From a virus, in IMG/VR virus record IMGVR_UViG_3300033182_000371, positions 10,030 to 74,029 of that record: a stretch of 64,000 nucleotides of DNA; one strand, written 5' to 3'. Both the position numbers and the translations under genes were made by a program. Under the pieces are notes generated by a model. The model was not told the DNA's origin. It saw only the letters and a list, made by a program, of their open reading frames with translations, and searched no databases. Below are positions 9,538 to 55,089 of this stretch, piece after piece. The number at the start of each line of letters is the position of its first letter. Position 1 is the first letter of the stretch.

Positions 9538-10179
9538 TTATTTCACCACAGCGATGACAGGTTTGTAAAGCCAACCTGTCTTGCAGTAATTGCAGTGCTC
9601 AGGAACTTCAACCTCATAAGGTTTGAAACTCATGTCAAACTTTGTTTCAAGTTCCATATTACTTAACATAACATAGAACCGATCAACATGTCCCTGCATT
9701 GGAGCACCTTGGGTAGAACAATAGAAAGAGAACTTTGCTTTCTCGTTCGAATGTTCACTGATACATGTTACCATAAAATGAATGATATCGCAACCAGCGT
9801 ATTGAAGAATCTCTGGTGTCATCCACTTCTCTTCAATGTAAGGATCATAAAAGAAGCAATCGTACTTTCCAAGATGATCCCTACAAGGCCATCCTTGATT
9901 GAGCACTGTAATGTTTTTATAATCCTTTGCCCATTCCAATGCTCTCGCATATGCAACAGGGTCTGGTTCTAGAACAGTATATGATTTGATGTCATGTTTC
10001 TGAAACTGGGTCGCAGAGTATCCCATACCAAAACCAACCTCTAGGATATCTCCGTAAGGTTCTAAGGCATCGACACATTCTTCCATATACTTCTTCTCCC
10101 ATTCCATCATATATTGATGGTCTTCGGAAGTTCCGTAAAGAATATCTTCGTCGTTTATGTCTTTTGTGTATTTTGCCAT
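9538..10179 (-). CDS. SAM-dependent methyltransferase (GAMT/Rmt2-like)
   Basis: MMEWEKKYM, ILEVGFGMGYSA, FFYDPY. Confidence 0.8.
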   Translation of the reverse strand: MAKYTKDINDEDILYGTSEDHQYMMEWEKKYMEECVDALEPYGDILEVGFGMGYSATQFQKHDIKSYTVLEPDPVAYARALEWAKDYKNITVLNQGWPCRDHLGKYDCFFYDPYIEEKWMTPEILQYAGCDIIHFMVTCISEHSNEKAKFSFYCSTQGAPMQGHVDRFYVMLSNMELETKFDMSFKPYEVEVPEHCNYCKTGWLYKPVIAVVK

Positions 10180-10601
10180 GGGAAATAATCTTTTTTCATA
10201 TACCTCCCAAGAATATTACTATTGTAATACTTTGGAGTTCCATCTTCTAAGGATTCAGTCAAAACATTATGAAGGAATAATTGCTTAGTCTCTTCGAAAT
10301 TAACAAATCCTTTCGTCTTATGTAGGCTTAAAATTTCTCTCTTGAAATTAGAGTTCCCAAGCTCCTTTCTTTCTGCGCTAAGTTCATCAGAACTGCCATA
10401 GTATTTCTTCCAGTCACTTTCACTTCTAACTCTCCTAGTTTTGCCTCTAGGCTTTCGTAGCGACCAGAAGTACTTTCTGCCAATGTAAATCCGACCAGAA
10501 ATGAGATTAGTGATACGGTAGACAAACCCGTAGTAATCACCAATATCCTCACTACTGAACGGAGTACCTTCGTAAGTCCATGGGTTTTCATAATCAACCA
10601 T
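10155..10601 (-). CDS. GIY-YIG family nuclease (Seg-like)
   Basis: GFVYRITN...YIGRK, YYGSS, E...YYN. Confidence 0.75.
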   Translation of the reverse strand: MVDYENPWTYEGTPFSSEDIGDYYGFVYRITNLISGRIYIGRKYFWSLRKPRGKTRRVRSESDWKKYYGSSDELSAERKELGNSNFKREILSLHKTKGFVNFEETKQLFLHNVLTESLEDGTPKYYNSNILGRYMKKDYFPWQNTQKT

Positions 10602-10696: not shown

Positions 10697-12430
10697 TCAG
10701 ACTCCTTTATATCCTGGTGCCTTAATTTCTTTTGGTTTCCCATCAGGACCAGTTACATACTTGACCCCAGACTTACCAGTCTTCGGAGACTCCCAAGGAT
10801 TCAAGGTTCCCTTAACTGGAGGGAATGCCTCGCCCAGGACCTCCTCTACGATGCTTTCGATCTGTTCAGCGGTCAGTTGCTCCATGATCGCCTCAGCGTG
10901 CTCTACGCTGTCCATGAGACCATTCTCATCAAGATATGTTAGAATGACATCATAGAGATTAAAATCATCCTTCATCCAACGGGGAACAGTATCGTCCTTC
11001 TGGGCTGCCATTTCCTTGCGAGCCTTCTCATTGTTCTCCTGACGCTTCTTCATATTTGTTTCCAAATACGAATCATCCTTCTTGTCTTTCTTGTATTGAG
11101 GATGATCGTCTACACTATGTCCACGCTTTTTCTCAAGACGCTTCTTACGCTCTTCAGTGCCCTTCTCGGCATCAACATCACGGACACCTTCCTTAACACA
11201 GTTAGGAACTTGACGACCGTCCTTAGTCTTAGTACCCTTTGCCTTGTAACCATCCCAGCACTTGCTAGCACCGACATTCTTCCGTGCCTGCTTCAAGGAT
11301 TCGATGACAGATTTAGTTTCTTCAACCATCTCACCCTCAACTTCATGAGAATTCATCAGAGGATTCTTAGTATTGTAAGTCATCTTAGACTTAGGAGGAT
11401 TGGCACTCATCAGGGGGTTAGGTGTCATGCCAGATCTTCTGCCATAGTTAGCACCAAACTTTGCCTTGAACTTAGTTTGTCCAAGAGTCTCTGCCTGTCT
11501 AGTAGCAGCAGATGCTGCTTTAAAGTCTCCTGCAGCACTAGCTGACTTTGCCTTTGCCTGCAGTGCCTTGTAGTCAGCGTTGGGATCGGGTTTGGGTGCA
11601 GGTTTGGGTGTAGAGGGTTGAGAAGAGTATGCAGACCCCGTAGAGGTCGATCCAGTTCTTGCTACCTGTGCGTTCTGCTTTGCTACTTCCTGTTTGGCAA
11701 CATTAGCAGCGGCAGAACGCACACCAGTTTGTGCGGGTGGTGGAGTGGATGCTGCTTTTGTTTCTGCTTTCTGTTGAGCAAGTTTCTGTTGCTTCTGTGC
11801 AGCAGTGATAGCAGTAGAGGTAGTGCTACCACCTTCACCATACTTATTGGTTCCAAAGAATTTCTCAGCATCAGCAGCTGGGACCTGTGGTCTAGGAGGA
11901 ACATACGGTTGAGCAACTCTTGGTCTTGGACCAACACCTTGTTCTGGACCTGGCGATTTTTTGTTCCTGTTGCGCCAGTTATTCATAGTGCCTCTAATAA
12001 GATCTAGAGGGAAAAATCCTGTTGCTTGCTGTTCAAAAACAATCGCTCTTGCCTGCTTTTTCTCAGCAGTCTCAAGATTCTCATGGATGCGAGGATTGAC
12101 TGCCTTCATGGCAGAAATAAACTCAGGTCCAACAACATCCATCGGGAGTGCTTCGATGATGTTATCCAGAAGTCTGGCACTCTCATATCCTTCGCCAATC
12201 AGAACCTCAGCAATGGCGCGATACTGCTCAGCATAGACAGGGTTCATTGCATGCAGTCTCTTCAGGTAGAAGGACTCGCATGTGCATTTATCTACTTTCT
12301 TCTTATCTACTTTCTTTCCTTGAGGATTGTCGTCTTTTCTGTTCCAATCTTTTACTTCTTCCTCAGATTTCTTGCCTTCGGCAATCTGAGCATAGGATTC
12401 AGAAAGTTTATCTAAGTGAGAGCGATTCAT
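10697..12430 (-). CDS. Late modular protein, putative internal head polyprotein
   Basis: TATAAATA at 12457-12464; basic modules bounded by Glu; CWDGY...VPNCVKE module. Confidence 0.7.
   Translation of the reverse strand: MNRSHLDKLSESYAQIAEGKKSEEEVKDWNRKDDNPQGKKVDKKKVDKCTCESFYLKRLHAMNPVYAEQYRAIAEVLIGEGYESARLLDNIIEALPMDVVGPEFISAMKAVNPRIHENLETAEKKQARAIVFEQQATGFFPLDLIRGTMNNWRNRNKKSPGPEQGVGPRPRVAQPYVPPRPQVPAADAEKFFGTNKYGEGGSTTSTAITAAQKQQKLAQQKAETKAASTPPPAQTGVRSAAANVAKQEVAKQNAQVARTGSTSTGSAYSSQPSTPKPAPKPDPNADYKALQAKAKSASAAGDFKAASAATRQAETLGQTKFKAKFGANYGRRSGMTPNPLMSANPPKSKMTYNTKNPLMNSHEVEGEMVEETKSVIESLKQARKNVGASKCWDGYKAKGTKTKDGRQVPNCVKEGVRDVDAEKGTEERKKRLEKKRGHSVDDHPQYKKDKKDDSYLETNMKKRQENNEKARKEMAAQKDDTVPRWMKDDFNLYDVILTYLDENGLMDSVEHAEAIMEQLTAEQIESIVEEVLGEAFPPVKGTLNPWESPKTGKSGVKYVTGPDGKPKEIKAPGYKGV
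11189..11296 (-). repeat. 108-bp coding module, copy 1 (LKQARKNVG..CWDGY..VPNCVKE)
   Basis: Same length as 20119-20226, with 29-bp and 16-bp identical blocks. Confidence 0.9.
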
Positions 12431-12470
12431 CTTTGGTACTCAGACTCCAATAAAGATATTTATATCTACA

Positions 12471-12530
12471 CAAAAAGAAGACTTCCCTGATATTTGCCAG
12501 GGAAGTCTTCTGCGCCGACGATATTCAATT
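12471..12530 (-). ncRNA. Candidate small RNA ending in 14-bp terminator hairpin
   Basis: TAAATA at 12532-12537; AGAAGACTTCCCTG/CAGGGAAGTCTTCT stem plus U-tract; no ORF. Confidence 0.45.
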
Positions 12531-12547
12531 TTATTTATCAGGAAGTA

Positions 12548-12631
12548 TTAGGGGAGAACGGCGGCGATCGTTCCCCCAAAGAAAAGAGTCATTACTGTTC
12601 CTAATGTTAAGGTGGCGGTTGTGAAATTCAT
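12548..12631 (-). CDS. 27-aa hydrophobic peptide
   Basis: MNFTTATLTLGTVMTLFFGGTIAAVLP; SD GGAGG and TATAAT upstream. Confidence 0.6.
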   Translation of the reverse strand: MNFTTATLTLGTVMTLFFGGTIAAVLP

Positions 12632-12665
12632 CGTCCCTCCATAGGTCTATATTATATAGCAATTA

Positions 12666-12682
12666 TGTATCATAATGATACA
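12666..12682. promoter_or_regulatory. Palindromic operator-like site
   Basis: TGTATCAT-A-ATGATACA just upstream of -10 TATAAT. Confidence 0.55.
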
Positions 12683-12727
12683 AAAGTCTGTCACAACCGC
12701 TACTAAATCCGAAGCAATTGTTAAAGA

Positions 12728-12889
12728 TTACAGATAATCCTTACGCTTGTACTTGTTCTTCAACGCTTGTAGCATCCATGCTTGAGCAAGACTCTTTGGA
12801 CCATGCATGATTACATTAGATTCCTTCTCACCGATTGTGGGATCAGCAAGAGCAAGTTTTTTCCATTCTGGCAGTTCAGAGTTTTCCAC
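12728..12889 (-). CDS. Small hypothetical protein
   Basis: Manual translation ..EWKKLALAD..HGPKSLAQAWMLQALK (GTG start). Confidence 0.55.
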   Translation of the reverse strand: MENSELPEWKKLALADPTIGEKESNVIMHGPKSLAQAWMLQALKNKYKRKDYL

Positions 12890-13094
12890 CGACTTTACCA
12901 TCATTCATTACCCTACTAGACGCTTCATCCCACCCCTCCTGTCTACCTTTGAGATAAAAACGAGTCATTCTAATACACAGTTTTTCAGACAAAGCAGTTA
13001 CTAATTCTTCACCATCTTTTGATGCACTGTGCCACATTTTATATTTTGTTTCGTAGACACGAAATGCATCATCATGCCATTCATATTCACTCAT
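12876..13094 (-). CDS. Hypothetical cyanophage protein
   Basis: MSEYEWHDDAFRV...VGGKL. Confidence 0.7.
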   Translation of the reverse strand: MSEYEWHDDAFRVYETKYKMWHSASKDGEELVTALSEKLCIRMTRFYLKGRQEGWDEASSRVMNDGKVGGKL

Positions 13095-13302
13095 AATTTT
13101 TTTTGTTAAATCCAAAGGGTTGGTTCTCAAGTTCTTTTTGAACCCTAAGTTTCTGTGCAAGCTTGCAGACAGTTTCCATTACTTTGAGTGTGTCCTCAAT
13201 GGTTGATTCCACTGGCATTTGATTACGGACAATATCAAACAATGGAAAGAATTGTTCTGCTGCTTCAGTAACTTCTTCAGTCGTTAATGGTTTTGTATTC
13301 AC
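13087..13302 (-). CDS. Hypothetical protein
   Basis: Overlaps nrdB stop. Confidence 0.65.
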   Translation of the reverse strand: MNTKPLTTEEVTEAAEQFFPLFDIVRNQMPVESTIEDTLKVMETVCKLAQKLRVQKELENQPFGFNKKNYE

Positions 13303-14480
13303 AATTGGAATCCTGCAAAGGTATCTTTTTCGACATCCTGTTTGATGCCACCGACAATATAGGACTCGACTTCGGTCTCTTGGGGAGCAACCTGAAGACC
13401 TTTGGACGAGATCCAGTGTTGTGTCCAGGGGAGGGGGTTATTTTTGGCAGAGATATCATAAAGAGGTTTCAGCCCAATGGCTTTCATACGACGATTAGCA
13501 ATCCATTCGACATACTGGCACAGAAGTTTTTCATTCAGACCAATCATGGATCCATCTTTGAACAAATATTCTGCCCACTGCTTCTCCTGATTTACAGCAT
13601 GCTGGAAGGTTTGAATCAACCAGGATTCCTCTTCCTTAGCAATCCTTTGCATGTCTGGGTCATCACCTTCACGCCATTTGTTGATGATGTTTTGAGTAAT
13701 GACAAGGTGCTGATTTTCGTCTCTTGCGATGAGAGAGATAATTTTAGCGGATCCTTCCATAAGCTTGAGTTCACCAAACGCAAACGAGCAAGCGAACGAG
13801 ACATAAAACCTGATGCCTTCGAGAATGTTGACATTAGCTACAGCACGAAAAAGTTTTCTCTTAAGTTCATAGCGATTTTCTTTAAAGGTTCCAGCACCTT
13901 CTTGTGCATACTTCCAGTCATCACTGACACCATACTGCTGAGCAGCATTAATGAAGTCGTCATATGCCTGAGTGATAGCAGCAGCTCTCTCCAGAATCCT
14001 CTCGTCGTCGATGATGGTATCAAATACTTCAGAGGGATCACTGTATACATTTTTGATGATGTATGTGTATGAGCGACTATGGATCATCTCCATGAATTGC
14101 CATACATTCATACATGCCTCCAGTTCAGGGAGGGAACAGTATGGCGAGAATGCCATACCAGGACCACGACCCTGAATAGAGTCTAGCATAACCTGATACT
14201 TTAGGTTGCTAGTGAAAATATGTTTTTGTTCTGGACGAAGTGTCTGATAATCAGCACGATCTTTTTGAAGAGAGACTTCCTCGGGTCTCCAGAAGTAACC
14301 CAATTGTTGTTGAGTCAGTTTGTCAAAGATTGGATACTTATAGGAATCGTATCTCTGAATGCTAAGGGGAGAACCAAAAAACATTGGTTGCTTTTTGGGG
14401 TCTGATGCGGTTGTATTGAAGACAGTCATTCCTTGAATAACTGGGTCTTGTTCTTTGATCCTAAATTGCACAGGCGTCAC
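13299..14480 (-). CDS. nrdB: Ribonucleotide reductase class Ia beta subunit
   Basis: FWRPEEV, EMIHSRSY, EGIRFY, DENQH, APQETEVESY. Confidence 0.97.
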   Translation of the reverse strand: MTPVQFRIKEQDPVIQGMTVFNTTASDPKKQPMFFGSPLSIQRYDSYKYPIFDKLTQQQLGYFWRPEEVSLQKDRADYQTLRPEQKHIFTSNLKYQVMLDSIQGRGPGMAFSPYCSLPELEACMNVWQFMEMIHSRSYTYIIKNVYSDPSEVFDTIIDDERILERAAAITQAYDDFINAAQQYGVSDDWKYAQEGAGTFKENRYELKRKLFRAVANVNILEGIRFYVSFACSFAFGELKLMEGSAKIISLIARDENQHLVITQNIINKWREGDDPDMQRIAKEEESWLIQTFQHAVNQEKQWAEYLFKDGSMIGLNEKLLCQYVEWIANRRMKAIGLKPLYDISAKNNPLPWTQHWISSKGLQVAPQETEVESYIVGGIKQDVEKDTFAGFQL

Positions 14481-16755
14481 ACTCCTCTTGCTTGCTTAAA
14501 TTTTCGAGTAAGTTTTCTAGTACTGATTCAGTTTTAGTCTCTTCTAATTCATCCGTTTTATTGTCGTAGGTGTTCTGATAGTAGGATGTTTTCCACCCGT
14601 ACTTATATGTAGTCAGAAGATCATTTGCCATGACAGAAACGGGTACTTCATTGTCGCTGTAGTTCTCTGGGTTGTAACTCCAGTTACCAGAGATAGCCTG
14701 GTCGAAGAACTTTTGCATTACGGCGACGATCTTGATATAGCCTTCATTAGACGCCATATCCCAGAGAAGGGTGTAGTGAGACTTGAGACTATTATACTGC
14801 GGAACGATCTGCTTGAGCGGACCCTTCTTCGATTTCTTAGTGGACAAGAATCCACGAGGAGGTTCGATTCCGTTGGTTGCATTTGACACAACGGAACTGC
14901 TCTCCGATGGCATCTGTGCGGACAGTGTTGAGTTCCGTAATCCGTATGCAACGATAGACTCTCTAAGACCTTCCCAATCATAGTTTAACTTATGCGGTAC
15001 AATTCCGTCAACATCCTTCTTGTATGTATCAATCGGAAGAATACCTGAAGAATATTTGGTACGGTTGAAGTAACCACAAGGACCAATCTCTTTTGCAAGT
15101 TGATTGGATGCCTTCAGCAGATAGTACTGGAACGCCTCTGTAAGGTCGTGTACGAGTTGATGTGCTTCTTGATCATCATAACCCACCTTATGCTTAGCAA
15201 GATAGTGTGCAAGACCAATATAACCCACACCCAGGGAACGACGATTCTTGGTGCCTACCTCTGCTGCTTTGACAGGATATCCTTGGAAGTCGATGAGAGC
15301 ATCCAGACCACGCACAGAGAGGTCACAGAGTTCCTCTAACTCATCAAGGTTACGAAGTTTGCCTACATTGATTGCAGACAGAATACAGAGAGCAATTTCA
15401 CCCTCTCCATCAATATGCTGAAGTGGTTTAGTCGGTAAAGTAATCTCTTGACAGAGATTGCTCATCTCTACCTTATCCAAGAAGGAAGAGTGGGAATTGC
15501 AGTGGTCGATATTCATGATATACAAACGACCAGTCTCTGCCCTCTCCTTGAGAATGCTCAGGAAAAGTTCTTGTGCTGAAACAGACTGTCTTGGAACAGA
15601 CTTATCTGATTCATAACCCACATAAAGCTCGTCAAATCTATCAGTACCAAAAGCATCATACAGACCAGGAACATCGTGCGGACTGAAGAGTGAGATGTCT
15701 TGGTTCTTGATGAAACGCTCATAGAAGAGTTTGGTGATTTGGATGCTATAGTCTAAGCGACGAACACGATTATCCTCAGTTCCCTTATTATTTTTTAGGA
15801 CAATGATGTCTTGGATTTCTTTGTGCCAGATTGGGAAGTGGACAGTTGCTGATCCACCTCTGATGCCATTTTGAGTGCAGCATCTGACAGTTGCTTCAAA
15901 CTTTTTGAGGAAAGGGATAACACCTGTGTGTTGAACTTCTCCGCCTCTGATCTTACTGTTGATGCCACGGATCCTACCCGCGTTGATGCCGATACCCGCC
16001 CTTTGTGCAACATATCTGCCGATAGCCATATCAGAACTAAAGATGCTATCGAGGGAGTCATCAACATCAACAAGAACACAGCTAGCAAATTGTCGAAGTG
16101 GAGTTCTAACCCCTCCCATGATAGGTGTGGGAATGTTGATTTTGTGCTTTGAGATTGCGTCGTAGTACCTCTTGACATAATCGAGACGGGTTTCCTTAGG
16201 ATACTCAGCAAAGATCGTAGCAGCGATCATCAAGTACATGAACTGGGGAGTCTCATAGACATCTCCAGTGCTACGATCCTGAACGAGATATTTATCTGCT
16301 ACCTGGCGAAGACCAGCATAGGTGAACAGGAAGTCACGCTCATGGTCAAGATATCCATTCAGTTTTTCCCACTCTTCTGCAGAATATTTTACCGCAATTT
16401 CTGCATCATAAACTCCTCTTTTTATGGATTGCTCCACATGCTGCTGCAAGGTGGGGCACTCATGCATACGACCCCACAGTTGTTTCCTGAGGGCAAACAG
16501 GAGCAGTCTGGCAGCAACGAATTGATAGTTCGGATTCTCAAGGTCAATCAGATCGCTAGCACTACGAATCAGGATCTCCTGAATTTCAGCAGTGGTAACA
16601 CCATCATAAAACTGAATACCAGAATTAATTTCAATCTGAGAAGCAGAGACGCCAGCAAGATCTTTACATGCTTCGTCTACCATCTTATGCATCTTATTGA
16701 GATCAAGTGATTCAAGTTCACCAGATCTTTTACGAACTTTAGTCCCGTTGGTCAT
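14461..16755 (-). CDS. nrdA: Ribonucleotide reductase class Ia alpha subunit
   Basis: ATP cone, PTPIM, SCVL, SNLCQEI, C-terminal CDAC. Confidence 0.97.
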   Translation of the reverse strand: MTNGTKVRKRSGELESLDLNKMHKMVDEACKDLAGVSASQIEINSGIQFYDGVTTAEIQEILIRSASDLIDLENPNYQFVAARLLLFALRKQLWGRMHECPTLQQHVEQSIKRGVYDAEIAVKYSAEEWEKLNGYLDHERDFLFTYAGLRQVADKYLVQDRSTGDVYETPQFMYLMIAATIFAEYPKETRLDYVKRYYDAISKHKINIPTPIMGGVRTPLRQFASCVLVDVDDSLDSIFSSDMAIGRYVAQRAGIGINAGRIRGINSKIRGGEVQHTGVIPFLKKFEATVRCCTQNGIRGGSATVHFPIWHKEIQDIIVLKNNKGTEDNRVRRLDYSIQITKLFYERFIKNQDISLFSPHDVPGLYDAFGTDRFDELYVGYESDKSVPRQSVSAQELFLSILKERAETGRLYIMNIDHCNSHSSFLDKVEMSNLCQEITLPTKPLQHIDGEGEIALCILSAINVGKLRNLDELEELCDLSVRGLDALIDFQGYPVKAAEVGTKNRRSLGVGYIGLAHYLAKHKVGYDDQEAHQLVHDLTEAFQYYLLKASNQLAKEIGPCGYFNRTKYSSGILPIDTYKKDVDGIVPHKLNYDWEGLRESIVAYGLRNSTLSAQMPSESSSVVSNATNGIEPPRGFLSTKKSKKGPLKQIVPQYNSLKSHYTLLWDMASNEGYIKIVAVMQKFFDQAISGNWSYNPENYSDNEVPVSVMANDLLTTYKYGWKTSYYQNTYDNKTDELEETKTESVLENLLENLSKQEECDACAI

Positions 16756-17720
16756 ACCTTTTTCCACTCTGTAAACTTAACTTTTGCTTCTAATCCTGAG
16801 TATGTATTTGATTTTAACATGCCGTTAACATCATGTCCAGCAAGGACCATATCATTGATGTCTTTTTCTACAATTCCACTTGGCCAGATGACGACTCTTT
16901 CGCCTCTTGATATGCAGTTGTCAATGCGATCGACAATCTCTCTATTGCGGGGCTCATTATCATAAACATAAATGAGATCATTTCCCTCAAGACAACGAAG
17001 ATCACCGTCAGCGCCACACAAAGCCACGCTATTGTCGATAAAAGTGCTGTCCAGGGGTCCTTCGACCACATAGACAGGTAGTCCTGAATCGATTGTGTCG
17101 TATCCATAAATTTTTGGTGCATGATCATCAAGCATCACGGTAATATATTTAACACGGTTAGGACCTATAGCCCTTCCCTGAAAACCAATTAGGTTTTGAT
17201 TATAAAACAAAGGAATGATTATCCTAGATTCTTCGTGAGAAGTGCTCGTGAATACCTCTTGAAAAGTATTGGCAAATGACTTGAACTTCTCAGCAAAGTA
17301 AAACTTGGACGGGTCAATCTTCCGTCCTTCCAGATACTTTTTTGCGGTTTCTACCTCACTGCACAGAGGAAGATCCAACTTTGCAATGAACTTAGGTTTT
17401 TCAAAAACAAACTCTGGTTCTTCAATAACAAAGTTCTTACCAGTATGTCCCTCTTTAAACTTCTCGATAGAATACTTTTTATGCAGAGTAGTATCTAACT
17501 TCTTCAAGAAGTTGTTAAGGGACATCGAAGCACCACAATTGTGGCACTTGAAGTTTGTATTATTTTTGACTGTATAGATGTACCCACGCGCTTTGTTCTT
17601 GTAACGCTGGGAGTCTCCACAGATAGGGCAACGAAAATTATAAAGATCTGCCTTTACTCTTTTAAACTTCTGGAGTCTAGCAGAGACAAGACCGATATAC
17701 TTGGAATCAATTAAGTCCAT
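16752..17720 (-). CDS. g61: DNA primase (gp61)
   Basis: CPICGDS...CHNC Zn finger, EGPLDS, YDNEPRN, DIND. Confidence 0.95.
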   Translation of the reverse strand: MDLIDSKYIGLVSARLQKFKRVKADLYNFRCPICGDSQRYKNKARGYIYTVKNNTNFKCHNCGASMSLNNFLKKLDTTLHKKYSIEKFKEGHTGKNFVIEEPEFVFEKPKFIAKLDLPLCSEVETAKKYLEGRKIDPSKFYFAEKFKSFANTFQEVFTSTSHEESRIIIPLFYNQNLIGFQGRAIGPNRVKYITVMLDDHAPKIYGYDTIDSGLPVYVVEGPLDSTFIDNSVALCGADGDLRCLEGNDLIYVYDNEPRNREIVDRIDNCISRGERVVIWPSGIVEKDINDMVLAGHDVNGMLKSNTYSGLEAKVKFTEWKKV

Positions 17721-18132
17721 TCACCAGACTAGTGCCTGGGACTATTGTACTCGTTATCGGTGCAGGTGTCAATAATCTGATGATAGGAGGAGCCACTTGT
17801 AGCACCGTCACAACTGTAGCGATGACAGCCATAGCACCAACAACAAACCTCCCATTCCTATCAACTTTCTTCTCAAGTTCACCTATCTTTTCATCGATGT
17901 TCTTGAACATACGATCATCATACTTCTGATGATCCTTAATCATTTGGATGATTGCTTGATTCGCCTTGTCGCCTTCATCGAGTCTATTCTCGTGGCGCTC
18001 TAGAATAATGGCAGTTTTATTCGTATTATCTTGAATAGAAGATACTGCACGCTCTAACTTGTCCAGCATTTCCTTGGACAAGTCTTCGTAGATGCTTAAC
18101 TTTGACTCAAGAACCCCTAGTTTTCCTAACAT
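17707..18132 (-). CDS. Coiled-coil protein with C-terminal TM segment
   Basis: ORF composition; synteny upstream of primase. Confidence 0.7.
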   Translation of the reverse strand: MLGKLGVLESKLSIYEDLSKEMLDKLERAVSSIQDNTNKTAIILERHENRLDEGDKANQAIIQMIKDHQKYDDRMFKNIDEKIGELEKKVDRNGRFVVGAMAVIATVVTVLQVAPPIIRLLTPAPITSTIVPGTSLVNGLN

Positions 18133-18295
18133 GGTCTAACCAGCGTTTGCGTGAACCTTTACCAAGGTAAATGTTTCTTCCAGCAACGGGTCCTTTGGGG
18201 TCAGATGTATCAGAAAAACCGCCAGATGCTCCTGGAGCATTGGCGACCATCATCTCTTTCAAGATGTCATACACTTTTTGTAAGCGTCGATCCAT
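18107..18295 (-). CDS. Small hypothetical protein
   Basis: MDRRLQKVYDILKEMMVANAPG...; TGATG coupling. Confidence 0.6.
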   Translation of the reverse strand: MDRRLQKVYDILKEMMVANAPGASGGFSDTSDPKGPVAGRNIYLGKGSRKRWLDHVRKTRGS

Positions 18296-18666
18296 CAGAC
18301 TGCTCGTAACTGTTCTAAACAATACTCGTCATCGATAATATTATTTAGTTCCGTGCGTGGATAATCAGGAACTCTGCCAAGATATGTCAAGAAACTTTTA
18401 GTACAAGACCAAAGATCTCTGTCTAATTTAAAAAACAACAAAGGAACTCCAGCGTCCCCAAACACATTAAAAAGGACTATGAAGTGATTAAGAATCAAGT
18501 GGGTCCTTAACTCCCCACTGTTCTTATACCTCTTCAGTAGCCTTTTAATATACTTAATTCTTTTTAGATCATCATAAAAATCCTCTTCGGTCACCGCTTG
18601 AGGATTCTCATAGTTCTTAATGGCAAATAAGAGATAATTGCTATCGTTCAATTCATGAAATTTCAT
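18295..18666 (-). CDS. Conserved T4-like phage hypothetical protein
   Basis: MKFHELN..NYLLFAIKNYENPQ...LILNH. Confidence 0.8.
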   Translation of the reverse strand: MKFHELNDSNYLLFAIKNYENPQAVTEEDFYDDLKRIKYIKRLLKRYKNSGELRTHLILNHFIVLFNVFGDAGVPLLFFKLDRDLWSCTKSFLTYLGRVPDYPRTELNNIIDDEYCLEQLRAV

Positions 18667-18676
18667 TCACTTATTA

Positions 18677-19177
18677 TCACTCGTCAGTAGGATAAGCGAT
18701 TCCATAATCGCCAGTTTGAATACCAGACATGGCAACAAGAACTTCGCTCTTGACTCTCAGGTTGCCGTGCATATCCATGTATGTCATAACACCGACATAT
18801 CCATGGTGAGCAACAGCATAAGAACCAGAGGTGTCCGTGGAAATACCATAAACCAGAGAGTCTGCTTCGCTTCTCTCTTCCTGGTAAACGCTATCCTTGA
18901 CGGTGTACATCGGCAGTTCGCTGATGTAATAAGAGGTAGCGGCGATGCTGGATGCGCTCAGACCCGCATCAGAATCGATGGTCAGAACTCTATCGCTGGT
19001 AATGCCAGTGATAACAGCATCGCCATAGTATGTACCTACGCCGCCACGAGATCCTACTCGGATGACTTGACCGACGCTGTAGTCGGTAAAGGTGGTGCCA
19101 GTACCAGTTACAGTCAGATTAGCAACGGTAACTGTACCCGCAGTTTCAATGTTGTCGTTAATGCCCCAAAGAGCCAT
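18677..19177 (-). CDS. Putative virion structural protein
   Basis: MALWG..., Thr/Gly-rich, RVKSEVLVAM; TATAAATA at 19211-19218. Confidence 0.7.
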   Translation of the reverse strand: MALWGINDNIETAGTVTVANLTVTGTGTTFTDYSVGQVIRVGSRGGVGTYYGDAVITGITSDRVLTIDSDAGLSASSIAATSYYISELPMYTVKDSVYQEERSEADSLVYGISTDTSGSYAVAHHGYVGVMTYMDMHGNLRVKSEVLVAMSGIQTGDYGIAYPTDE

Positions 19178-19220
19178 GTCCTTACGCCCAAACTACAGTT
19201 TTCGTACAATTATTTATAAG

Positions 19221-19424
19221 TCAAGCATCCTCGCGGTTTCTGATTGCAGCAGAAACTGCTTCCAGAAGCTTGTCATCCATATCGGTTTTGGTCAGTTTAA
19301 CTGCCTTACCGAGAATGACCAGACAGATTTCGATAAGTTTTTCGCCAAGTTCCTCGTTCTCGGGAATCTTAGCAACAGCATCGGAGATAATTTTCGATGC
19401 TAAGGGAAGTAAAAATCCTAACAT
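19221..19424 (-). CDS. Small hypothetical protein
   Basis: Clean ORF. Confidence 0.7.
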   Translation of the reverse strand: MLGFLLPLASKIISDAVAKIPENEELGEKLIEICLVILGKAVKLTKTDMDDKLLEAVSAAIRNREDA

Positions 19425-19455
19425 GATTTGAAAGGCAACGCCTTTCTATATAGGC

Positions 19456-20595
19456 TCAATCTCTCGCAGAGTCGTATTTAGATCTTGCCTGAGATTCCTT
19501 CTTTTCTTTAGAAGTCAGTCCATACTTAGAAATACGCTTGTTAGTCTTCTTGATTCTCTCTTGACTCAGTTCACCTTCGGTCTGTTTACGACCTCTTTCA
19601 CTTTTCTCTTCACGAGAACCAGGGTGCTCCTTACGGAACTTGCTGGTGATACCTTCATACTTTCCCTCTTTCTCGTATCCAGCAACCTTCTTGCCCTTCT
19701 CTTCGATATCTGGTCTGCGAGTTCCCTCTGCAATGGCAGCGATCTCTTCTTTTACAGATTTCTTCTCAGGAAGTTTAGTATGCTTAGTGGAGGCAAAATC
19801 CTTCACATCCTTCTTGTTCATGCTGGCAGCAACTTTGGCAACCTCAGGCGACGCTGCTCTCTCACCTTTCTGAGCAGCTCTGACCATACCCATGAAACGC
19901 TGCTGCTTTCTAGAGACTGCCTTTTCATTGACCTGTTCAACTTCTTCGGACACTCCTCTTGCCCTATTCATCGCATCATTAAATTTCTTATTTCTATCAG
20001 AGACCATTCCCTTGACTTTCTTGATGGCTTCCTGACCAATCTTAGTGCCAGCGATAGCAGTTCCTGCCATCAAACCAAGTTTAATAGCAGTAGCTGCTGC
20101 TTCATCAACTTGCTCTTCTTCCTTTACACAGTTAGGAACTTCTTTGCCACCCTTCTTCTTAGTTCCCTTAGCAACATATCCATCCCAACACTTACCCGCA
20201 CCGACATTCTTCCGTGCCTGCTTCAACCCTTCTTGAATATCAGGATTGATTTTGATTACATTCTTTACGGGTTTCTCTTCAATAGTTAACTCTTTTTCGT
20301 CAGAGTTCGTCGCCTTCTCGGCGGGATAAAGCTTTTTTTCGGTTAAGTCTCCAACCTTTTGACGCAGAGTCGCTTCTACTTCTTCCTTCTTAACACGCTT
20401 TGCTTTATCAGCAGCAATAGCAGCACCAACTGCCTTACGACGATTTCTCAGATAAGAATCGGACTTATCAGAGTCACCATCATTATCAATATCAGCGTCT
20501 TCCTTACCAACAGGATCCAACTTTTCGGTAATAAAAACATTTGCCATGCTGTTAAGCATGATCTGCTCGGCGCTATCTTCAATAAAGTTTTTCAT
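19456..20595 (-). CDS. Late modular protein, putative internal head polyprotein
   Basis: TATAAATA at 20628-20635; modules DPVGKEDADIDNDGD, CWDGY, KAVSRKQQRFMGMV..FASTKH. Confidence 0.7.
   Translation of the reverse strand: MKNFIEDSAEQIMLNSMANVFITEKLDPVGKEDADIDNDGDSDKSDSYLRNRRKAVGAAIAADKAKRVKKEEVEATLRQKVGDLTEKKLYPAEKATNSDEKELTIEEKPVKNVIKINPDIQEGLKQARKNVGAGKCWDGYVAKGTKKKGGKEVPNCVKEEEQVDEAAATAIKLGLMAGTAIAGTKIGQEAIKKVKGMVSDRNKKFNDAMNRARGVSEEVEQVNEKAVSRKQQRFMGMVRAAQKGERAASPEVAKVAASMNKKDVKDFASTKHTKLPEKKSVKEEIAAIAEGTRRPDIEEKGKKVAGYEKEGKYEGITSKFRKEHPGSREEKSERGRKQTEGELSQERIKKTNKRISKYGLTSKEKKESQARSKYDSARD
20119..20226 (-). repeat. 108-bp coding module, copy 2
   Basis: Homologous to 11189-11296. Confidence 0.9.
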
Positions 20596-20619: not shown

Positions 20620-21819
20620 CTATCTTTTATTTATAAACGACTTGACTTTTTCAAGTGGAGTAAGGGATTGTACATACTCTCGGTAGGAATCTGTACCTAT
20701 TTCTCTCTTCGAAGCAGGAACTCCAGAAGGAATGCGAGAGACATACTCAGTCAAGTCTCTAATCCAAGACTTGAACATAATACCCTCATTTGTAACTGCA
20801 ATTACATGGTTAGCACCACGGCGAATGATTCTACCAACTAATCCAGTGTTAAGAGATTCTACAAGAGAACCCATTCCAAAGATATTACCATAAAGATAAT
20901 TCTCTCTGAGTGTTTTTGAATCATACTTAGGAGCAATTTGCCACAGTTCAATACCCTCGGTAGTCGCTGCAGTTGCCATAGATCTTTGAACTGTATTGAA
21001 CAGTTCTCTAGCAACTACACCCTTTGCTGCTTTTGGCAATCCTTTCCTGAAAGATTCATAATCTCCATCTGCTGCTAGTGCTCGTAATTTCGAAGCAGAC
21101 ATGCCCTCGACCCCTTCAGCATCGGGGTCCCGTTCTCCAGCAGAGATGACATTAATCGCATCAAAATTATAGAGTTGTCCGTTGTATTTGTTTGCGAGGT
21201 TCTCAAACTCCTTTTGTCTGTCAGCACCAACCACGATGTTGATGCCACTATATCCTTCGACATCGGCTTGTTTTAACGCATCAAAAATAGTACGAATTGC
21301 GGGATCATATACAATTGCATTTGCATGATCAGGGAACATCTTCTTCATGAAGAGAACCTTGGTCTCAGAATCAAGAGGATTCTTTTGAGGATCTACAGAA
21401 TGAGAAGGATAAACAATATACTCCTCACCATCAGCAGTCTTTTTAATTGTATCTAAAAGTTTTTCGTGACCAGATGTGGGAGGATTGAATCTACCAAATC
21501 CAATGGTAAGAGTCCCTCTAGTTTTTTCTACTTCTTCAACTTCTCCTTCTTCAGGTTGCATTCCACCTTTTCCAGGAGCAGGTGGTGGTGGTTGGTCAGG
21601 AAGTGTTCCTCTGGCAGCAGGTCCAGGTCTTGTGGGATCACTCTCTTGTGCGGGTTTTCTGCCACTGGTGAATACCAATTCACCTTCGACTGTTCTTCCT
21701 ACAATTCTACCCTGAGGATCTAACCACGATCCATGACCGTCACCCTTCAAACCAAGCTTCTTCGCTTGCTTTGCAGCGTTAGTCTGTGCCTCGTTCAAAA
21801 ACTGGAAGAAACTCTTCAT
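20620..21819 (-). CDS. Cytidyltransferase-like nucleotidyltransferase
   Basis: FGRFNPPTSGH, VVGADR, MSASKLR; late promoter 21860-21867. Confidence 0.85.
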   Translation of the reverse strand: MKSFFQFLNEAQTNAAKQAKKLGLKGDGHGSWLDPQGRIVGRTVEGELVFTSGRKPAQESDPTRPGPAARGTLPDQPPPPAPGKGGMQPEEGEVEEVEKTRGTLTIGFGRFNPPTSGHEKLLDTIKKTADGEEYIVYPSHSVDPQKNPLDSETKVLFMKKMFPDHANAIVYDPAIRTIFDALKQADVEGYSGINIVVGADRQKEFENLANKYNGQLYNFDAINVISAGERDPDAEGVEGMSASKLRALAADGDYESFRKGLPKAAKGVVARELFNTVQRSMATAATTEGIELWQIAPKYDSKTLRENYLYGNIFGMGSLVESLNTGLVGRIIRRGANHVIAVTNEGIMFKSWIRDLTEYVSRIPSGVPASKREIGTDSYREYVQSLTPLEKVKSFINKR

Positions 21820-21821
21820 GA

Positions 21822-22430
21822 TTATTTTGCAAATACCCGCCGTGTATTCTCCGCAACTCTATTTATATTAAAGGATACAGTCATACGAAGATGTTTACTA
21901 TCATTCTTCTTAACAAAGTGCTTCAAGTGGGATGGAAAGATTAGTATGTCTCCCTCTTCTACAGGGATATCGGTATGTTCCAAGATGTGAGGATTCAATC
22001 TTTCATCCATAATGTTTCCATCAAACATGAAAGAAAATATATTATCTAGAGGATTGCAAAATGTTGTTCCTTCATGCTCAAGAGGATCAAACATCACATA
22101 ATGGATAGCAGAATAAAATCCAGGAAGATGAGTGTGAGGTTCTTGGTAATGAGAACGCTCATAGGTATTCAACCAAATCTCATAGATGTGAGGTTTTTCT
22201 AAAAGTCCAATATCCTTTCTCCACTGTTGCAAAACACCAGTATAATTATCACTAATCTCTTGAGGGAATGCACCTTCAAATTCTGTCCTGACATTACAAA
22301 ACCAACCAGAAGGAGTTCCATTGATAGAAAAATCCTTATAGGAGTTATACCTATCCAGCATGTGCTGTTTTATTTCTGTGGGGTCAAGGTGATATTTGTA
22401 TATTCTTTGAGGAAACAAATCAATGTACAT
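21822..22430 (-). CDS. Putative 2OG-Fe(II) oxygenase (TIGR02466-like)
   Basis: QEPHTH, EGDILIFPSHLKH, RMTVSFN. Confidence 0.8.
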   Translation of the reverse strand: MYIDLFPQRIYKYHLDPTEIKQHMLDRYNSYKDFSINGTPSGWFCNVRTEFEGAFPQEISDNYTGVLQQWRKDIGLLEKPHIYEIWLNTYERSHYQEPHTHLPGFYSAIHYVMFDPLEHEGTTFCNPLDNIFSFMFDGNIMDERLNPHILEHTDIPVEEGDILIFPSHLKHFVKKNDSKHLRMTVSFNINRVAENTRRVFAK

Positions 22431-51426: not shown

Positions 51427-52866
51427 TCACATGAGGTTCTTAACAACTGTACGCTGGTAGTAGCGGTTGCTGTTAGAGGTGATACGACCGAGACCCTGGT
51501 TCGAAACATTGCCTTCAGCGAAGGGGTTGGAGACAAGACCGTAGCGGGTCTTGAAGCCAATCTTGGGCTGGAAGCTGTTCTCACCGACGGCACGAACCAT
51601 CTGGAGGGGAACATAGGGGCAGTAGAAGAGACCAGCGTCATAGGGGCTGGTGCCCTTGTAACCGACAACATAGTACTGGTTAGAAGCACTGTTGGCAGAG
51701 AAGGGATCGATGTAGACTCTGTACTTGCCGTTGATGGTTCCAGCGAAGGTGTTACCAGTGTCGTCAACTTGCAGGTTGGCGTTCAGGGCAGGGGTGTAAT
51801 CGAGTACACCAGCCATGGTCAGAGCGGAGGCGACATCAGCAGAGGTCATGATGATGTTGCCCTTCCCTCTACGAGTTCTCTGGGCGATTCTGTTAGCATC
51901 TCTTTCGATGTTAAACAGCAGACCCTTGAACTTCTCAACGCTCCAGCGACCGTTGGAGTCAACATCGAGGTCGAAGAAACCAGCGTTGGCAACATTGACC
52001 TGAGAACCAGCTTCAGCGGTCTTGTAGATGGTTCTGATGACTTCGCGGTTGATCTCAGCAAGGATCTCGCTAGACAGAATGTTAGCGAGTTCTGCTTCAG
52101 CGTTCAGACCGTGGATGGCACGCAGGTCCTGAGCCAGCTCCATGCTGTACTCAGCTTTCAGAGCACGAGACTTGGCGGTAACGGTGACCTTCTCGATCGA
52201 GAATGCCATCTCGTTGAAGTTGGTGCCGTTGCCGTCACCCAGAGCTTCAGAGTCGCCAGTAGCCATACCCTGACCAACGCTGTACTGAGCTTGAACAGCA
52301 TCAGAAGCGGTGCCTTCCAGGATACCAGGGTTGGTGCCACGCTGAGTAGCGGTAGAACCAAAACCAACAGCCAGACCATCATCGGTGGCAGCGGTGTAGT
52401 CGCCTTGGGTGGAGGTGCCACCAGCGACATTGGCGGAGAATGCAGAATCGGGCTCGTCGAAGAATGCCTCGGTGCCAGACTGGTTGGTGTAGCGGGAGCG
52501 CATTGCGAAGATCAGTCCAGTAGGACCGTTCATCGGTTGAACGCCAGCCAGTTCATAAGCAACCAGATTCGGCATAGAGCGACGAATCAGGGAGATCAGA
52601 ACGGGGTCGAAACCAGCGGTAGGACCAGCAGCAGTAGAACCACCACCGAAAGCACCAGAAGCGCCAGCGGCGTTACCAGAGTTGGTGGGAGCTTCGGTCA
52701 GCATCGAGGTGCCGCTTTCGAAAGCAGCTTGCTCACGCAGGAAACGCTCTTGGTTTTCCAGGAGAACAGCGGTAGTAGCACGACGGTGAGAGTCCTTAAT
52801 AGGATCTACACCCTCGGCATCGAGAAGGGGAGACCACTTCTCAATTAATTGTTGTGCGTTGTACAT
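51427..52866 (-). CDS. g23: Major capsid protein (gp23)
   Basis: GVQPMNGPTGLIFAMR, EINREV, FYCPYVPL, GFKTRYG. Confidence 0.98.
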   Translation of the reverse strand: MYNAQQLIEKWSPLLDAEGVDPIKDSHRRATTAVLLENQERFLREQAAFESGTSMLTEAPTNSGNAAGASGAFGGGSTAAGPTAGFDPVLISLIRRSMPNLVAYELAGVQPMNGPTGLIFAMRSRYTNQSGTEAFFDEPDSAFSANVAGGTSTQGDYTAATDDGLAVGFGSTATQRGTNPGILEGTASDAVQAQYSVGQGMATGDSEALGDGNGTNFNEMAFSIEKVTVTAKSRALKAEYSMELAQDLRAIHGLNAEAELANILSSEILAEINREVIRTIYKTAEAGSQVNVANAGFFDLDVDSNGRWSVEKFKGLLFNIERDANRIAQRTRRGKGNIIMTSADVASALTMAGVLDYTPALNANLQVDDTGNTFAGTINGKYRVYIDPFSANSASNQYYVVGYKGTSPYDAGLFYCPYVPLQMVRAVGENSFQPKIGFKTRYGLVSNPFAEGNVSNQGLGRITSNSNRYYQRTVVKNLM

Positions 52867-54003: not shown

Positions 54004-54654
54004 TTAGAGGCTTGAAAGGAACTTATTGAACAGTGCCAACTTGTTCTCTTCAAGAGCTCTTTGATCTACAAGGGTATTAATTTGCTTGTAAGTCTTTTCT
54101 ACGAGTCTTTCTCTAACGATTCCGCCTTCCATAACCCAGTCCTTTCCTTCCATGATTCCTTCAACGAATGCGTCAGGAGCGGAGGGATCTGCTACAATGT
54201 CAGCAGCAGTAGCGAGCATAAAGTCATCAGAGACGATCTTTACACCTTCGTTATTTACACTCAAAGTACCAAGACCACGAGAAGAAACTCCGAGTTTTAC
54301 TCCATCTTCAACTAAGGCAGCAGCAATCTTACCCATCGGAGTAGATAAAATCTTTGCCTTACCGATGAAGTTGCTACCACTCTCTCTGAGAGAAATAATT
54401 TTGTGAGACACTCTATCGAGGTTAAGAGTAGGTCCATCAGGATGTCCGAGTTCACCAAGAGCTCTGCCTTTATTGACAAAGTTTTCGTTGTAACGAGTTA
54501 CTTCTCTGCGAAGAGTTTCCATGGGATACATCCGACCATTACGGTTCTTGATGTCTCCTTGCAGGAATACACCTTCAATAAACATCGACTTCTTACCGTT
54601 GCGTTCTTCAACGATAAGTTCGACCTGTTCGATTTCTTCCGTGATCAGTTTCAT
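54004..54654 (-). CDS. g21: Prohead protease (gp21)
   Basis: NRNGRMY, GELGHP, GVSSRG, DPSAP. Confidence 0.96.
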   Translation of the reverse strand: MKLITEEIEQVELIVEERNGKKSMFIEGVFLQGDIKNRNGRMYPMETLRREVTRYNENFVNKGRALGELGHPDGPTLNLDRVSHKIISLRESGSNFIGKAKILSTPMGKIAAALVEDGVKLGVSSRGLGTLSVNNEGVKIVSDDFMLATAADIVADPSAPDAFVEGIMEGKDWVMEGGIVRERLVEKTYKQINTLVDQRALEENKLALFNKFLSSL

Positions 54655-54658
54655 TTGA

Positions 54659-54925
54659 TTAACCTGTGAATCCTACTTTGGCTACTTTAAGTGCTCCTCC
54701 AACACCATAGATAAGGTCAGAGGATTTCTTCTCGATCAACTCAGATGTGTTGTTGAGCATGGTGATAGAACCAATGCCTGTAAAGGAAGAATCCTGCACA
54801 TGAAGAACAACGGTACTACCAGAGTCATTCAGAACTCTGACAACAGTAGCGTTGCCTACGGAAGTACTATTACCAATGCCAGCTGCCAGTGGAGTTTCCG
54901 CAGCGAGAATTAAAGTTCTCGACAT
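54659..54925 (-). CDS. Hypothetical protein
   Basis: Between g20 and g21. Confidence 0.7.
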   Translation of the reverse strand: MSRTLILAAETPLAAGIGNSTSVGNATVVRVLNDSGSTVVLHVQDSSFTGIGSITMLNNTSELIEKKSSDLIYGVGGALKVAKVGFTG

Positions 54926-55089
54926 TATTCTTCCTCAGTTGAATCTGGTGTACCAAAAAGACTCGCTGCTGCACCAGGACGCATTGCATCTACTTTTGTA
55001 GCAGCTCTTGTATAAAGAAGGTCTTTAATTTGATCGCTGATATCAACTGCAGACGAATCCGTCGCAATCATATTAATTAGTTCTTCCAT
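54925..55089 (-). CDS. Small prohead core protein (gp67-like position)
   Basis: Manual translation MEELINMIATD...KDLLY..A; TAAATA upstream. Confidence 0.65.
   Translation of the reverse strand: MEELINMIATDSSAVDISDQIKDLLYTRAATKVDAMRPGAAASLFGTPDSTEEE

Follow-up and report, generated by a model that had tools for sequence, protein, structure and literature searches.

Candidate internal head proteins built from exchangeable cassettes in a divergent T4-like cyanomyovirus

Introduction

Two genes of an IMG/VR virus contig (IMGVR_UViG_3300033182_000371) encode proteins which are dissimilar except for one short module, and this raises the question whether their products are packaged in the phage head and cut there into small peptides, as was suggested earlier from the sequence (the original prediction). 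The window analyzed here is a stretch of 64,000 nucleotides, namely bases 10030–74029 of this 74,029-base contig. Both open reading frames (ORFs) are located on the minus strand: ORF1 at 10697..12430 (577 residues) and ORF2 at 19456..20595 (379 residues) of the window. The window encodes nrdA, nrdB and a gp61-type primase, as well as gp17, gp18, gp19, gp20, a gp21-type protease, gp22 and gp23, and this gene content identifies the phage as a T4-like cyanomyovirus. Few viruses of the ocean are as abundant as T4-like cyanophages, and to our knowledge nothing comparable to the injected internal proteins of T4 has been described for them. In the literature searched, no paper links a capsid targeting sequence or internal head proteins to cyanophages.

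Results and Discussion

The module common to ORF1 and ORF2

Comparison of ORF1 with ORF2 by BLASTP gives a single significant match, between residues 375–414 of the former and 120–159 of the latter (31/40 identical, E=2e-13), the rest having E>0.6. The match covers a basic module of ~37 residues with two cysteines, called the CW cassette below. In ORF1 it comprises residues 378–414 (11189..11299, minus strand; net charge +7) and lies between V-I-E↓S and V-K-E↓G, the arrow marking a candidate cleavage site. In ORF2 it comprises residues 123–159 (GLKQARKNVGAGKCWDGY...PNCVKE; 20119..20229, minus strand) with the flanks I-Q-E↓G and V-K-E↓E. The DNA of the two copies (11186–11302 and 20116–20232) is identical at 91/117 nucleotides, with identical runs of 29 and 16 nucleotides. 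Both comparisons agree with the original prediction, which described a module of 36 residues with identical blocks of 29 and 16 bp in otherwise dissimilar ORFs.

Of the 31 residues that agree, 23 have the same codon in both copies (the codon usage of the window predicts 13.6), and the module contains a run of nine identical codons (P ~1e-4). This excess and this run indicate that the two copies share DNA ancestry beyond the constraint acting on the protein. Common ancestry within the genome, or gene conversion, is the more likely source of the identical 29-nucleotide block, as judged from the two copies. The block has no exact match in IMG/VR contigs, and for want of a match in other viral contigs a role as a conserved signal in the DNA or for recombination was discarded.

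The two Cys, Trp, Gly, Tyr, Gly-Thr-Lys, Asn and Val are invariant in the CW cassette. Its AlphaFold2 (AF2) model consists of a short helix followed by a β-hairpin closed near the two Cys, at moderate confidence with a predicted local distance difference test score (pLDDT) of 67 (72–80 in the hairpin). Neither the CW cassette nor ORF1 or ORF2 as a whole could be assigned to a family by searches of Pfam, NCBIfam and PDB sequences. In the ESM Atlas, ORF1 and ORF2 match only unnamed viral clusters, with scores <0.9 and template modelling (TM) scores <0.5, and pLDDT is ~0.5 for each. The Atlas also contains hints of relatives with NT5C or SAM-lyase domains.

Mosaic organization and exchange of cassettes

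ORF1 is a mosaic formed, from the N-terminus, by a leader, a conserved N-domain, a Pro/Ala/Gln-rich spacer, the CW cassette, a GVRD cassette, an acidic helical cassette and a basic tail (architecture HDijKl; family alignment A2). ORF2 lies in a variable slot, with the conserved nucleotidyltransferase gene on one side and, on the other, a conserved gene for a protein of 67 residues. Its leader is followed by an acidic dockerin/EF-hand-like (Dock) cassette (residues 25–72, KLDPVGKEDADIDNDGDSDKSDSYL...; 20380..20523, minus strand), which is common to S-SCSM1 ORF92, a virion protein (27/40 identical, E=3e-13). The DIDNDGDSD loop of this cassette has no Pfam hit, and PF00404 (Dockerin_1) is precomputed only in the distant relatives P0031, P0032 and P0108; the relation is apparently one of resemblance, not of membership.

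A basic cassette similar to DUF3008 (PF11450) is found further along ORF2 (residues 225–279; 19759..19923, minus strand), preceded by V-N-E↓K. Residues 226–279 align with the full 57-position model at 18.4 bits (E=0.0025; gathering cut-off 24), and the orthologues P0014, P0017 and P0022 carry a precomputed PF11450 hit. DUF3008 is a family without known function, hence membership in it explains nothing about the mechanism. The C-terminal region of ORF2 (residues 291–379; 19459..19725, minus strand) begins after I-A-E↓G and contains a basic tail at residues 300–379. The predicted fragments between sites carry net charges of +7 (CW cassette of ORF1), +8 (DUF3008-like cassette) and +11 (tail of ORF2), and the leaders and linkers are acidic. 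Gly/Ala-rich hydrophobic stretches (AAATAIKLGLMAGTAIAGTKIG; APALAAGAALGIGAAGLGLV) occur in ORF2 at residues 166–191 (20023–20100, minus strand) and also in P0274, P0275 and P0015. They look like glycine-zipper, membrane-active segments and would be odd cargo for a library of DNA-bound peptides.

The number of database relatives at E<=0.001 is 3,213 for ORF2 and 968 for ORF1, most of them covering the query only in part, and separate pieces of both proteins are matched by different PHROG families. The orthologues of ORF2 (alignment A1) keep the N-terminal 122 residues, the CW cassette, the DUF3008-like block and the basic tail, with unrelated inserts between them. Two of these orthologues have other sequence in place of the CW cassette, starting exactly after ...PDI(Q/A)E↓G. 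Among the relatives of ORF1 (A2) the CW cassette is exchanged for a glycine-rich hydrophobic cassette or is duplicated, and a 'KKGLWxNIHAKRKRG' (GLW) cassette is present or absent. In both alignments the swaps and indels fall exactly at hydrophobic-x-Glu sites.

A search with 13 cassette queries resolved 383 proteins into 79 architectures, with both orders occurring for MD/DM, bD/Db and DF/FD; the two types of N-terminal head are always N-terminal in this set. The CW cassette forms 813 clusters at 50% identity and stands at any position in 1–3 copies. It is found in 153 phage records, nearly all of them cyanomyoviruses, with the addition of the OM43 phage Melnitz and a Paraglaciecola virus. 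The shuffling of cassettes postulated in the original prediction is thus borne out, the order of modules being variable across phages. Exchange among marine T4-like phages by recombination is the best explanation of this pattern.

Junction sites and the prohead protease

The proposed processing enzyme is the gp21 prohead protease of the window (Peptidase_S77, PF03420, E=4.2e-34; 54004..54654, minus strand). A likely site of this protease can be recognized in gp23: L56-T57-E58 (52693..52701, minus strand) aligns with the L-T-E↓A site of T4 gp23 (PDB chains 6uzc and 5vf3), so that M-L-T-E↓A of the window stands opposite F-L-T-E↓A of T4, where mature gp23* begins in the solved structures. This alignment argues for a conserved specificity of the protease. 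The specificity of T4 gp21 is L/I-x-E, and Asp at P1 blocks processing (PMC9026906).

Logos of the cassette junctions were built by counting unique upstream contexts only. At the CW junction, P1 is Glu in 107/135 contexts and Asp in none, and P3 is L/I/V/M in 99/135; P2 is variable, with Asp common at P2 and P4. In 26 contexts with Gly at P1 the site is a variant shifted by one residue. The DUF3008 junction is stricter still (P1 Glu 28/28, Asp 0; P3 I/L/V 28/28), and the GVRD junction follows the same rule (P1 Glu 19/20, Asp 0; P3 L/I/V/M 15/20). The GLW cassette has such a site 2–4 residues upstream in 58/62 contexts. The end of the CW cassette is itself [LIVM]xE (V-K-E) in 126/162 contexts, and a second site lies within 13 residues after it in 88/162 contexts, compared with 42 +/- 5 in shuffles. 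As far as such logos can tell, the junctions match the specificity of T4 gp21.

Whole-protein counts point the same way: [LIVM]xE occurs 16 times in ORF1 (7.6 expected, z 3.3) and 12 times in ORF2 (7.3 expected, z 2.1). The hydrophobic-x-E sites said earlier to bound the segments (IAE, VIE, IQE, ITE, LTE and LGE) are present and over-represented, and the cassette boundaries carry a position-specific logo.

Leaders and the targeting decapeptide

The leader of ORF1 is formed by residues 1–18 (MNRSHLDKLSESYAQIAE↓G; 12377..12430, minus strand). It ends in I-A-E, a site kept in 8/9 relatives, and is a candidate targeting propeptide. The leader of ORF2 (residues 1–24, MKNFIEDSAEQIMLNSMANVFITE↓K; 20524..20595, minus strand) ends in I-T-E, which is kept in 10/10 orthologues. 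Both belong to one type, in which L-[ND]-x-[ILM]-[SA]-x-x-[FY] comes first and [LIVM]-x-E stands further on, at residue 18 (ORF1) or 24 (ORF2). This type is found in 190/378 Met-starting proteins of the collected set, which is biased as it was gathered by similarity to the window proteins, and also in the virion protein S-SCSM1 ORF92 (MTHLNDISKVYME↓K).

The gene next to ORF2 encodes a CT/NMNAT-like nucleotidyltransferase (20620..21819, minus strand; Pfam and PHROG hits). A scan with the decapeptide expression M-[KR]-x-[FYLW]-x-x-[FLIMW]-[LIVMT]-x-E revealed the leader MKSFFQFLNE↓A in it, and it is the only real gene of the window which passes this strict expression. The corresponding propeptides of T4 (NC_000866) are MKTYQEFIAE↓A in IPII and IPIII and MKTFKEFTSTTTPVSTITE↓A in IPI. 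Such T4-type propeptides have 10–19 residues, positions 4 and 7 being aromatic or hydrophobic and positions 8–10 being L/I-x-E. Orthologues of the nucleotidyltransferase start with MKSFLQFLKE↓A (S-SCSM1), MRFRQFIIE↓A (S-SZBM1), MKNFSSFLTE↓A (S-CREM2) and MKKFSEIIE↓A (Melnitz).

When S-CREM2 (OR473000) was scanned in six frames for ORFs of at least 40 residues, four passed the expression: gp6 (SAM hydrolase), gp13 (a 78-residue protein), gp14 (APH-like kinase) and gp154 (nucleotidyltransferase, cytidylyltransferase). All four are among the 52/219 ORFs detected in S-CREM2 virions by mass spectrometry (P ~0.003), and the proteome paper does not mention targeting sequences. Two other virion proteins of S-CREM2 have longer leaders, gp12 with FMAE↓A ending at residue 25 and gp15 with LFE↓K at residue 16.

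The nucleotidyltransferase is itself modular. Melnitz gp18 (650 residues) is a fusion of leader, nucleotidyltransferase, CW cassette and further domains. In P-HM2 the enzyme is split (P-HM2_163/164), and P-HM2_164 comprises its C-terminal SH3-like domain together with Dock, GLW and CW cassettes. The protein gp34 of Paraglaciecola virus GD1, (M)KTFKQFTLE↓KDDDDPCW...NCVKEEKDLKTE↓KDDDDPCW..., has an L-x-E in front of each of its two CW cassettes. Genes for S77 proteases are present in Melnitz as well as in GD1.

Late-promoter motifs

The late-promoter motif TATAAATA is located 33 nucleotides before the ATG of ORF1 (12457..12464, minus strand) and 39 nucleotides before that of ORF2 (20628..20635, minus strand), in the latter case within the 3' end of the gene that precedes it. 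These positions confirm the promoter motifs claimed for both ORFs. The motif search also placed TATAAATA before the nucleotidyltransferase gene (21860..21867, minus strand). In all, it stands 33–47 nucleotides ahead of ORF1, ORF2, the nucleotidyltransferase gene, the gene of a 166-residue virion-protein homologue and gp22, and GATAAATA precedes gp20. Six exact copies of TATAAATA occur in the window where 2.35 are expected, and all six are on the minus strand; at least six were obtained in 4/100 shuffles. By this motif, ORF1 and ORF2 look late. A GC-rich hairpin with a T-run (12472..12510, minus strand; read from the sequence) lies directly upstream of the ORF1 promoter and may be an intrinsic terminator ending the upstream unit. 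ORF1 therefore looks like a separate late transcription unit.

Virion proteomes of related phages

Proteins of this locus were found in virions from several related phages. In S-SZBM1 (PMC9146016) both the nucleotidyltransferase (gene 140) and the adjacent gene 139 (457 residues) were found by mass spectrometry, and the latter contains the CW cassette (M-T-E↓GLKQARKNVG...CWKGY). The annotation of S-SCSM1 lists as virion proteins ORF91 (the nucleotidyltransferase), ORF92, which occupies the mosaic slot, and ORF95; according to the S-SCSM1 paper, 45 phage proteins were detected by mass spectrometry, ORF91 being named among them (PMC9602691). The order of genes here (nucleotidyltransferase, mosaic gene, 67-residue protein, 166-residue protein) is syntenic with S-SCSM1 ORF91–95, the 67-residue protein being 87% and the 166-residue protein 49% identical to its counterpart. 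The nucleotidyltransferase and the next two genes are represented in S-CREM2 virions.

In S-SM1 virions the nucleotidyltransferase is represented by 25 peptide counts, and T4-GC119, a 'structural protein' whose size varies greatly, was detected as well. Judging by the cluster numbering, T4-GC119 may lie beside gp15/gp16. The vicinity of gp15/gp16 is a second locus of such mosaics (P-SSM7_106, S-SZBM1_194). Detection of the nucleotidyltransferase is not universal, since it is not listed in the virion proteome of S-SCSM2R. In the proteome papers, unexplained non-structural hits include the nucleotidyltransferase, the SAM hydrolase and neighboring hypothetical proteins.

Proposed processing and alternative explanations

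Taken together, these data partly support the original prediction, and we lean, if only slightly, toward the reading that ORF1 and ORF2 are internal head proteins loaded via their leaders and processed by gp21. Both proteins would be made late from TATAAATA promoters and, by means of a short leader at the N-terminus ending in [LI]-x-Glu, would get into the prohead core, where the gp21-type protease would trim them after Glu. Cutting between the cassettes would occur too, because a hydrophobic-x-Glu site precedes every cassette and the CW cassette ends in V-K-E. This would set free the two-Cys CW hairpin, the DUF3008 unit and the basic tails as basic mini-domains that stay with the packaged DNA, and the leaders and acidic linkers would be lost. 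The nucleotidyltransferase with its canonical decapeptide would be carried by the same system. Of the steps in this scheme, virion association has the best support. Removal of the leaders is likely, and cutting at most junctions is plausible. Packaging in the phage of the window, cleavage, retention with DNA, injection and effector activity are what we infer.

Several points weigh against this reading. All proteome data come from other phages, the phage of the window being uncultured, and the virion-detected relatives share just one cassette each with the window proteins. The hits in CsCl-purified virions may be abundant contaminants, as the proteome papers themselves point out (PMC9602691). 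A tblastn search of 50,697 phage records with the N-domain of ORF1 found nothing, and since no cultured phage carries this domain, ORF1 is without any proteomic support. Both ORFs fail the strict 10-residue capsid-targeting expression. The sequences behind the junction logos are related to each other and were gathered by similarity to the window proteins. Finally, the enrichment of [LIVM]xE is not specific, as the clamp-loader gene of the window scores z 3.8.

The clamp loader is surely no substrate of gp21, and T4 gp21 cuts accessible sites only. It is conceivable, though unlikely, that ORF1 and ORF2 are virion-associated as long flexible mosaics which stay uncut between cassettes, perhaps trimmed at the leader, the hydrophobic-x-Glu element serving helix capping, scaffold docking or as a folding boundary. 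The poor order of the predicted structures (pLDDT ~0.5 in the Atlas, 67 for the AF2 module) is in agreement with such chains. The junction pattern fits a protease site, not a structural cap, because Glu at P1 is strict, P2 is variable, and the site persists in over 100 upstream contexts that are unrelated; Asp never replaces Glu at P1, though it is common at P2 and P4. Moreover, the Pfam model of DUF3008 starts after the junction site, and in S-SZBM1_194 the DUF3008 domain is located at the protein's own N-terminus, so the site belongs to the linker and not to the domain.

A further possibility, which we consider improbable, is that ORF1 and ORF2 are assembly-only accessories of the core or scaffold, degraded by gp21 like gp22, with their fragments leaving the head and nothing functional retained or injected. 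T4 gp22, gp67 and gp68 undergo multiple cuts by gp21 at L/I-x-E, giving small peptides, some of which are kept in the head. The site density of ORF1 and ORF2 is similar to that of the window gp22, the enrichment of [LIVM]xE in gp22 (z 3.1) and gp21 (z 2.5) being comparable to theirs, and their linkers are acidic and helix-prone. Detection in virions is no proof of functional retention, because gp22 and gp21 are also seen in virions of S-SZBM1 and S-CREM2. However, the exponentially modified protein abundance index (emPAI) of S-SZBM1_139 in virions is above that of gp22 (0.39 and 0.19, respectively). The retained core peptides of T4 are acidic and their precursor is a conserved scaffold, in contrast to the putative products of ORF1 and ORF2, which are strongly basic (+6 to +11), as expected of DNA-bound internal proteins. 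The cassettes are also hypervariable and shuffled, and this is unusual for scaffolds.

Least probable of all is that ORF1 and ORF2 are non-virion late proteins (e.g. DNA-binding or lysis-related) whose relatives were detected through carry-over: although the proteome authors voice this caveat for non-structural hits, detection at the same locus recurs in four independent phages and laboratories, the S-CREM2 ORFs with the targeting motif are virion proteins in 4/4 cases, and in Melnitz the CW cassette is fused behind the leader-bearing nucleotidyltransferase.

Comparison with other head protein systems

As internal head proteins, ORF1 and ORF2 would resemble T4 IPI, IPII, IPIII and Alt in being encoded by late genes of a T4-type phage with gp21. 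Like the T4 internal proteins, they have an N-terminal leader ending in I-x-E (...YAQIAE↓G in ORF1, MKNF...VFITE↓K in ORF2), and the mature parts are basic. Both leaders resemble the 19-residue propeptide of IPI (MKTFKEF...TITE↓A), that of ORF2 sharing with it the type of start (MKTF...) and the I-T-E end, and MKSFFQFLNE↓A of the nucleotidyltransferase closely matches IPII and IPIII. The loci are hypervariable between related phages in both cases (PMC9026906). In contrast to the T4 proteins, the leaders of ORF1 and ORF2 have 18 and 24 residues and lie outside the decapeptide pattern, and each protein strings together many cassettes, every junction having a candidate site. The T4 internal proteins are cut at the N-terminal leader, and Alt is trimmed at the C-terminus too (PMC9026906). 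No homology to IPI, IPII, IPIII or Alt was detected, as Pfam, PHROG, NCBIfam and PDB gave no internal-protein match. Because of this, and because the decapeptide is lacking, ORF1 and ORF2 are not counted as members of the T4 internal-protein family.

Compared with the T4 core proteins, the precursors differ as well, ORF1 and ORF2 being mosaic and variable. The giant phages phiKZ and SPN3US differ in the P3 preference of their prohead protease, using a small residue there (S/A/G-x-E). Unlike ORF1 and ORF2, their inner-body proteins are large paralogues without shuffled cassettes of ~40 residues. Many head-internal proteins of these two phages are cut after Glu by the T4-related protease and injected (PMC5694885, PMC7411985).

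Genome context and neighboring genes

The nucleotidyltransferase of the window reaches at most 53% identity to any of 464 phage records, and for this reason the phage is called divergent. A nucleotide search of the 50,697 phage records gave zero matches for ORF1 and ORF2; accordingly, no close cultured relative is present among them.

Directly downstream of ORF1 lies a gene for a SegE-like GIY-YIG homing endonuclease (10155–10601, minus strand; PF19835, E=1e-53). Homing nucleases of this kind promote local gene conversion in T4, and by analogy the enzyme could aid exchange at the variable ORF1 locus.

Two small ORFs are found between gp20 and gp21 (54659–54925 and 54925–55089, minus strand), where T4 has gp67 and gp68. 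One, of 88 residues, resembles S-SZBM1_195 (50% over 28 residues, E=2e-6), which is among the most abundant small proteins of the S-SZBM1 virion proteome. The other, of 54 residues, is preceded by a GATAAATA motif and has a tail that is acidic.

Implications

If ORF1 and ORF2 are processed internal head proteins, the puzzling non-structural hits in virion proteomes would be explained, and a simple sequence rule would spot packaged cargo. The large, fast-shuffling set of small basic domains would then supply candidates for effectors of the first minutes of marine phage infection, or for counter-ions of the DNA. The basic products may serve the neutralization of DNA charge, which is the conservative function, or may act as effectors, which would be the more novel one. 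A wider proposal, offered tentatively since we find it rather doubtful, is that marine T4-like phages (cyanophages, Melnitz and the Paraglaciecola phage) possess a combinatorial head-cargo system, in which case the injected proteome could be predicted from sequence alone. In this system, a T4-like N-terminal targeting code and gp21 sites at every junction would load and release exchangeable basic mini-domains and enzymes (nucleotidyltransferase, SAM hydrolase, kinase), co-injected as early factors of host takeover or anti-defence.

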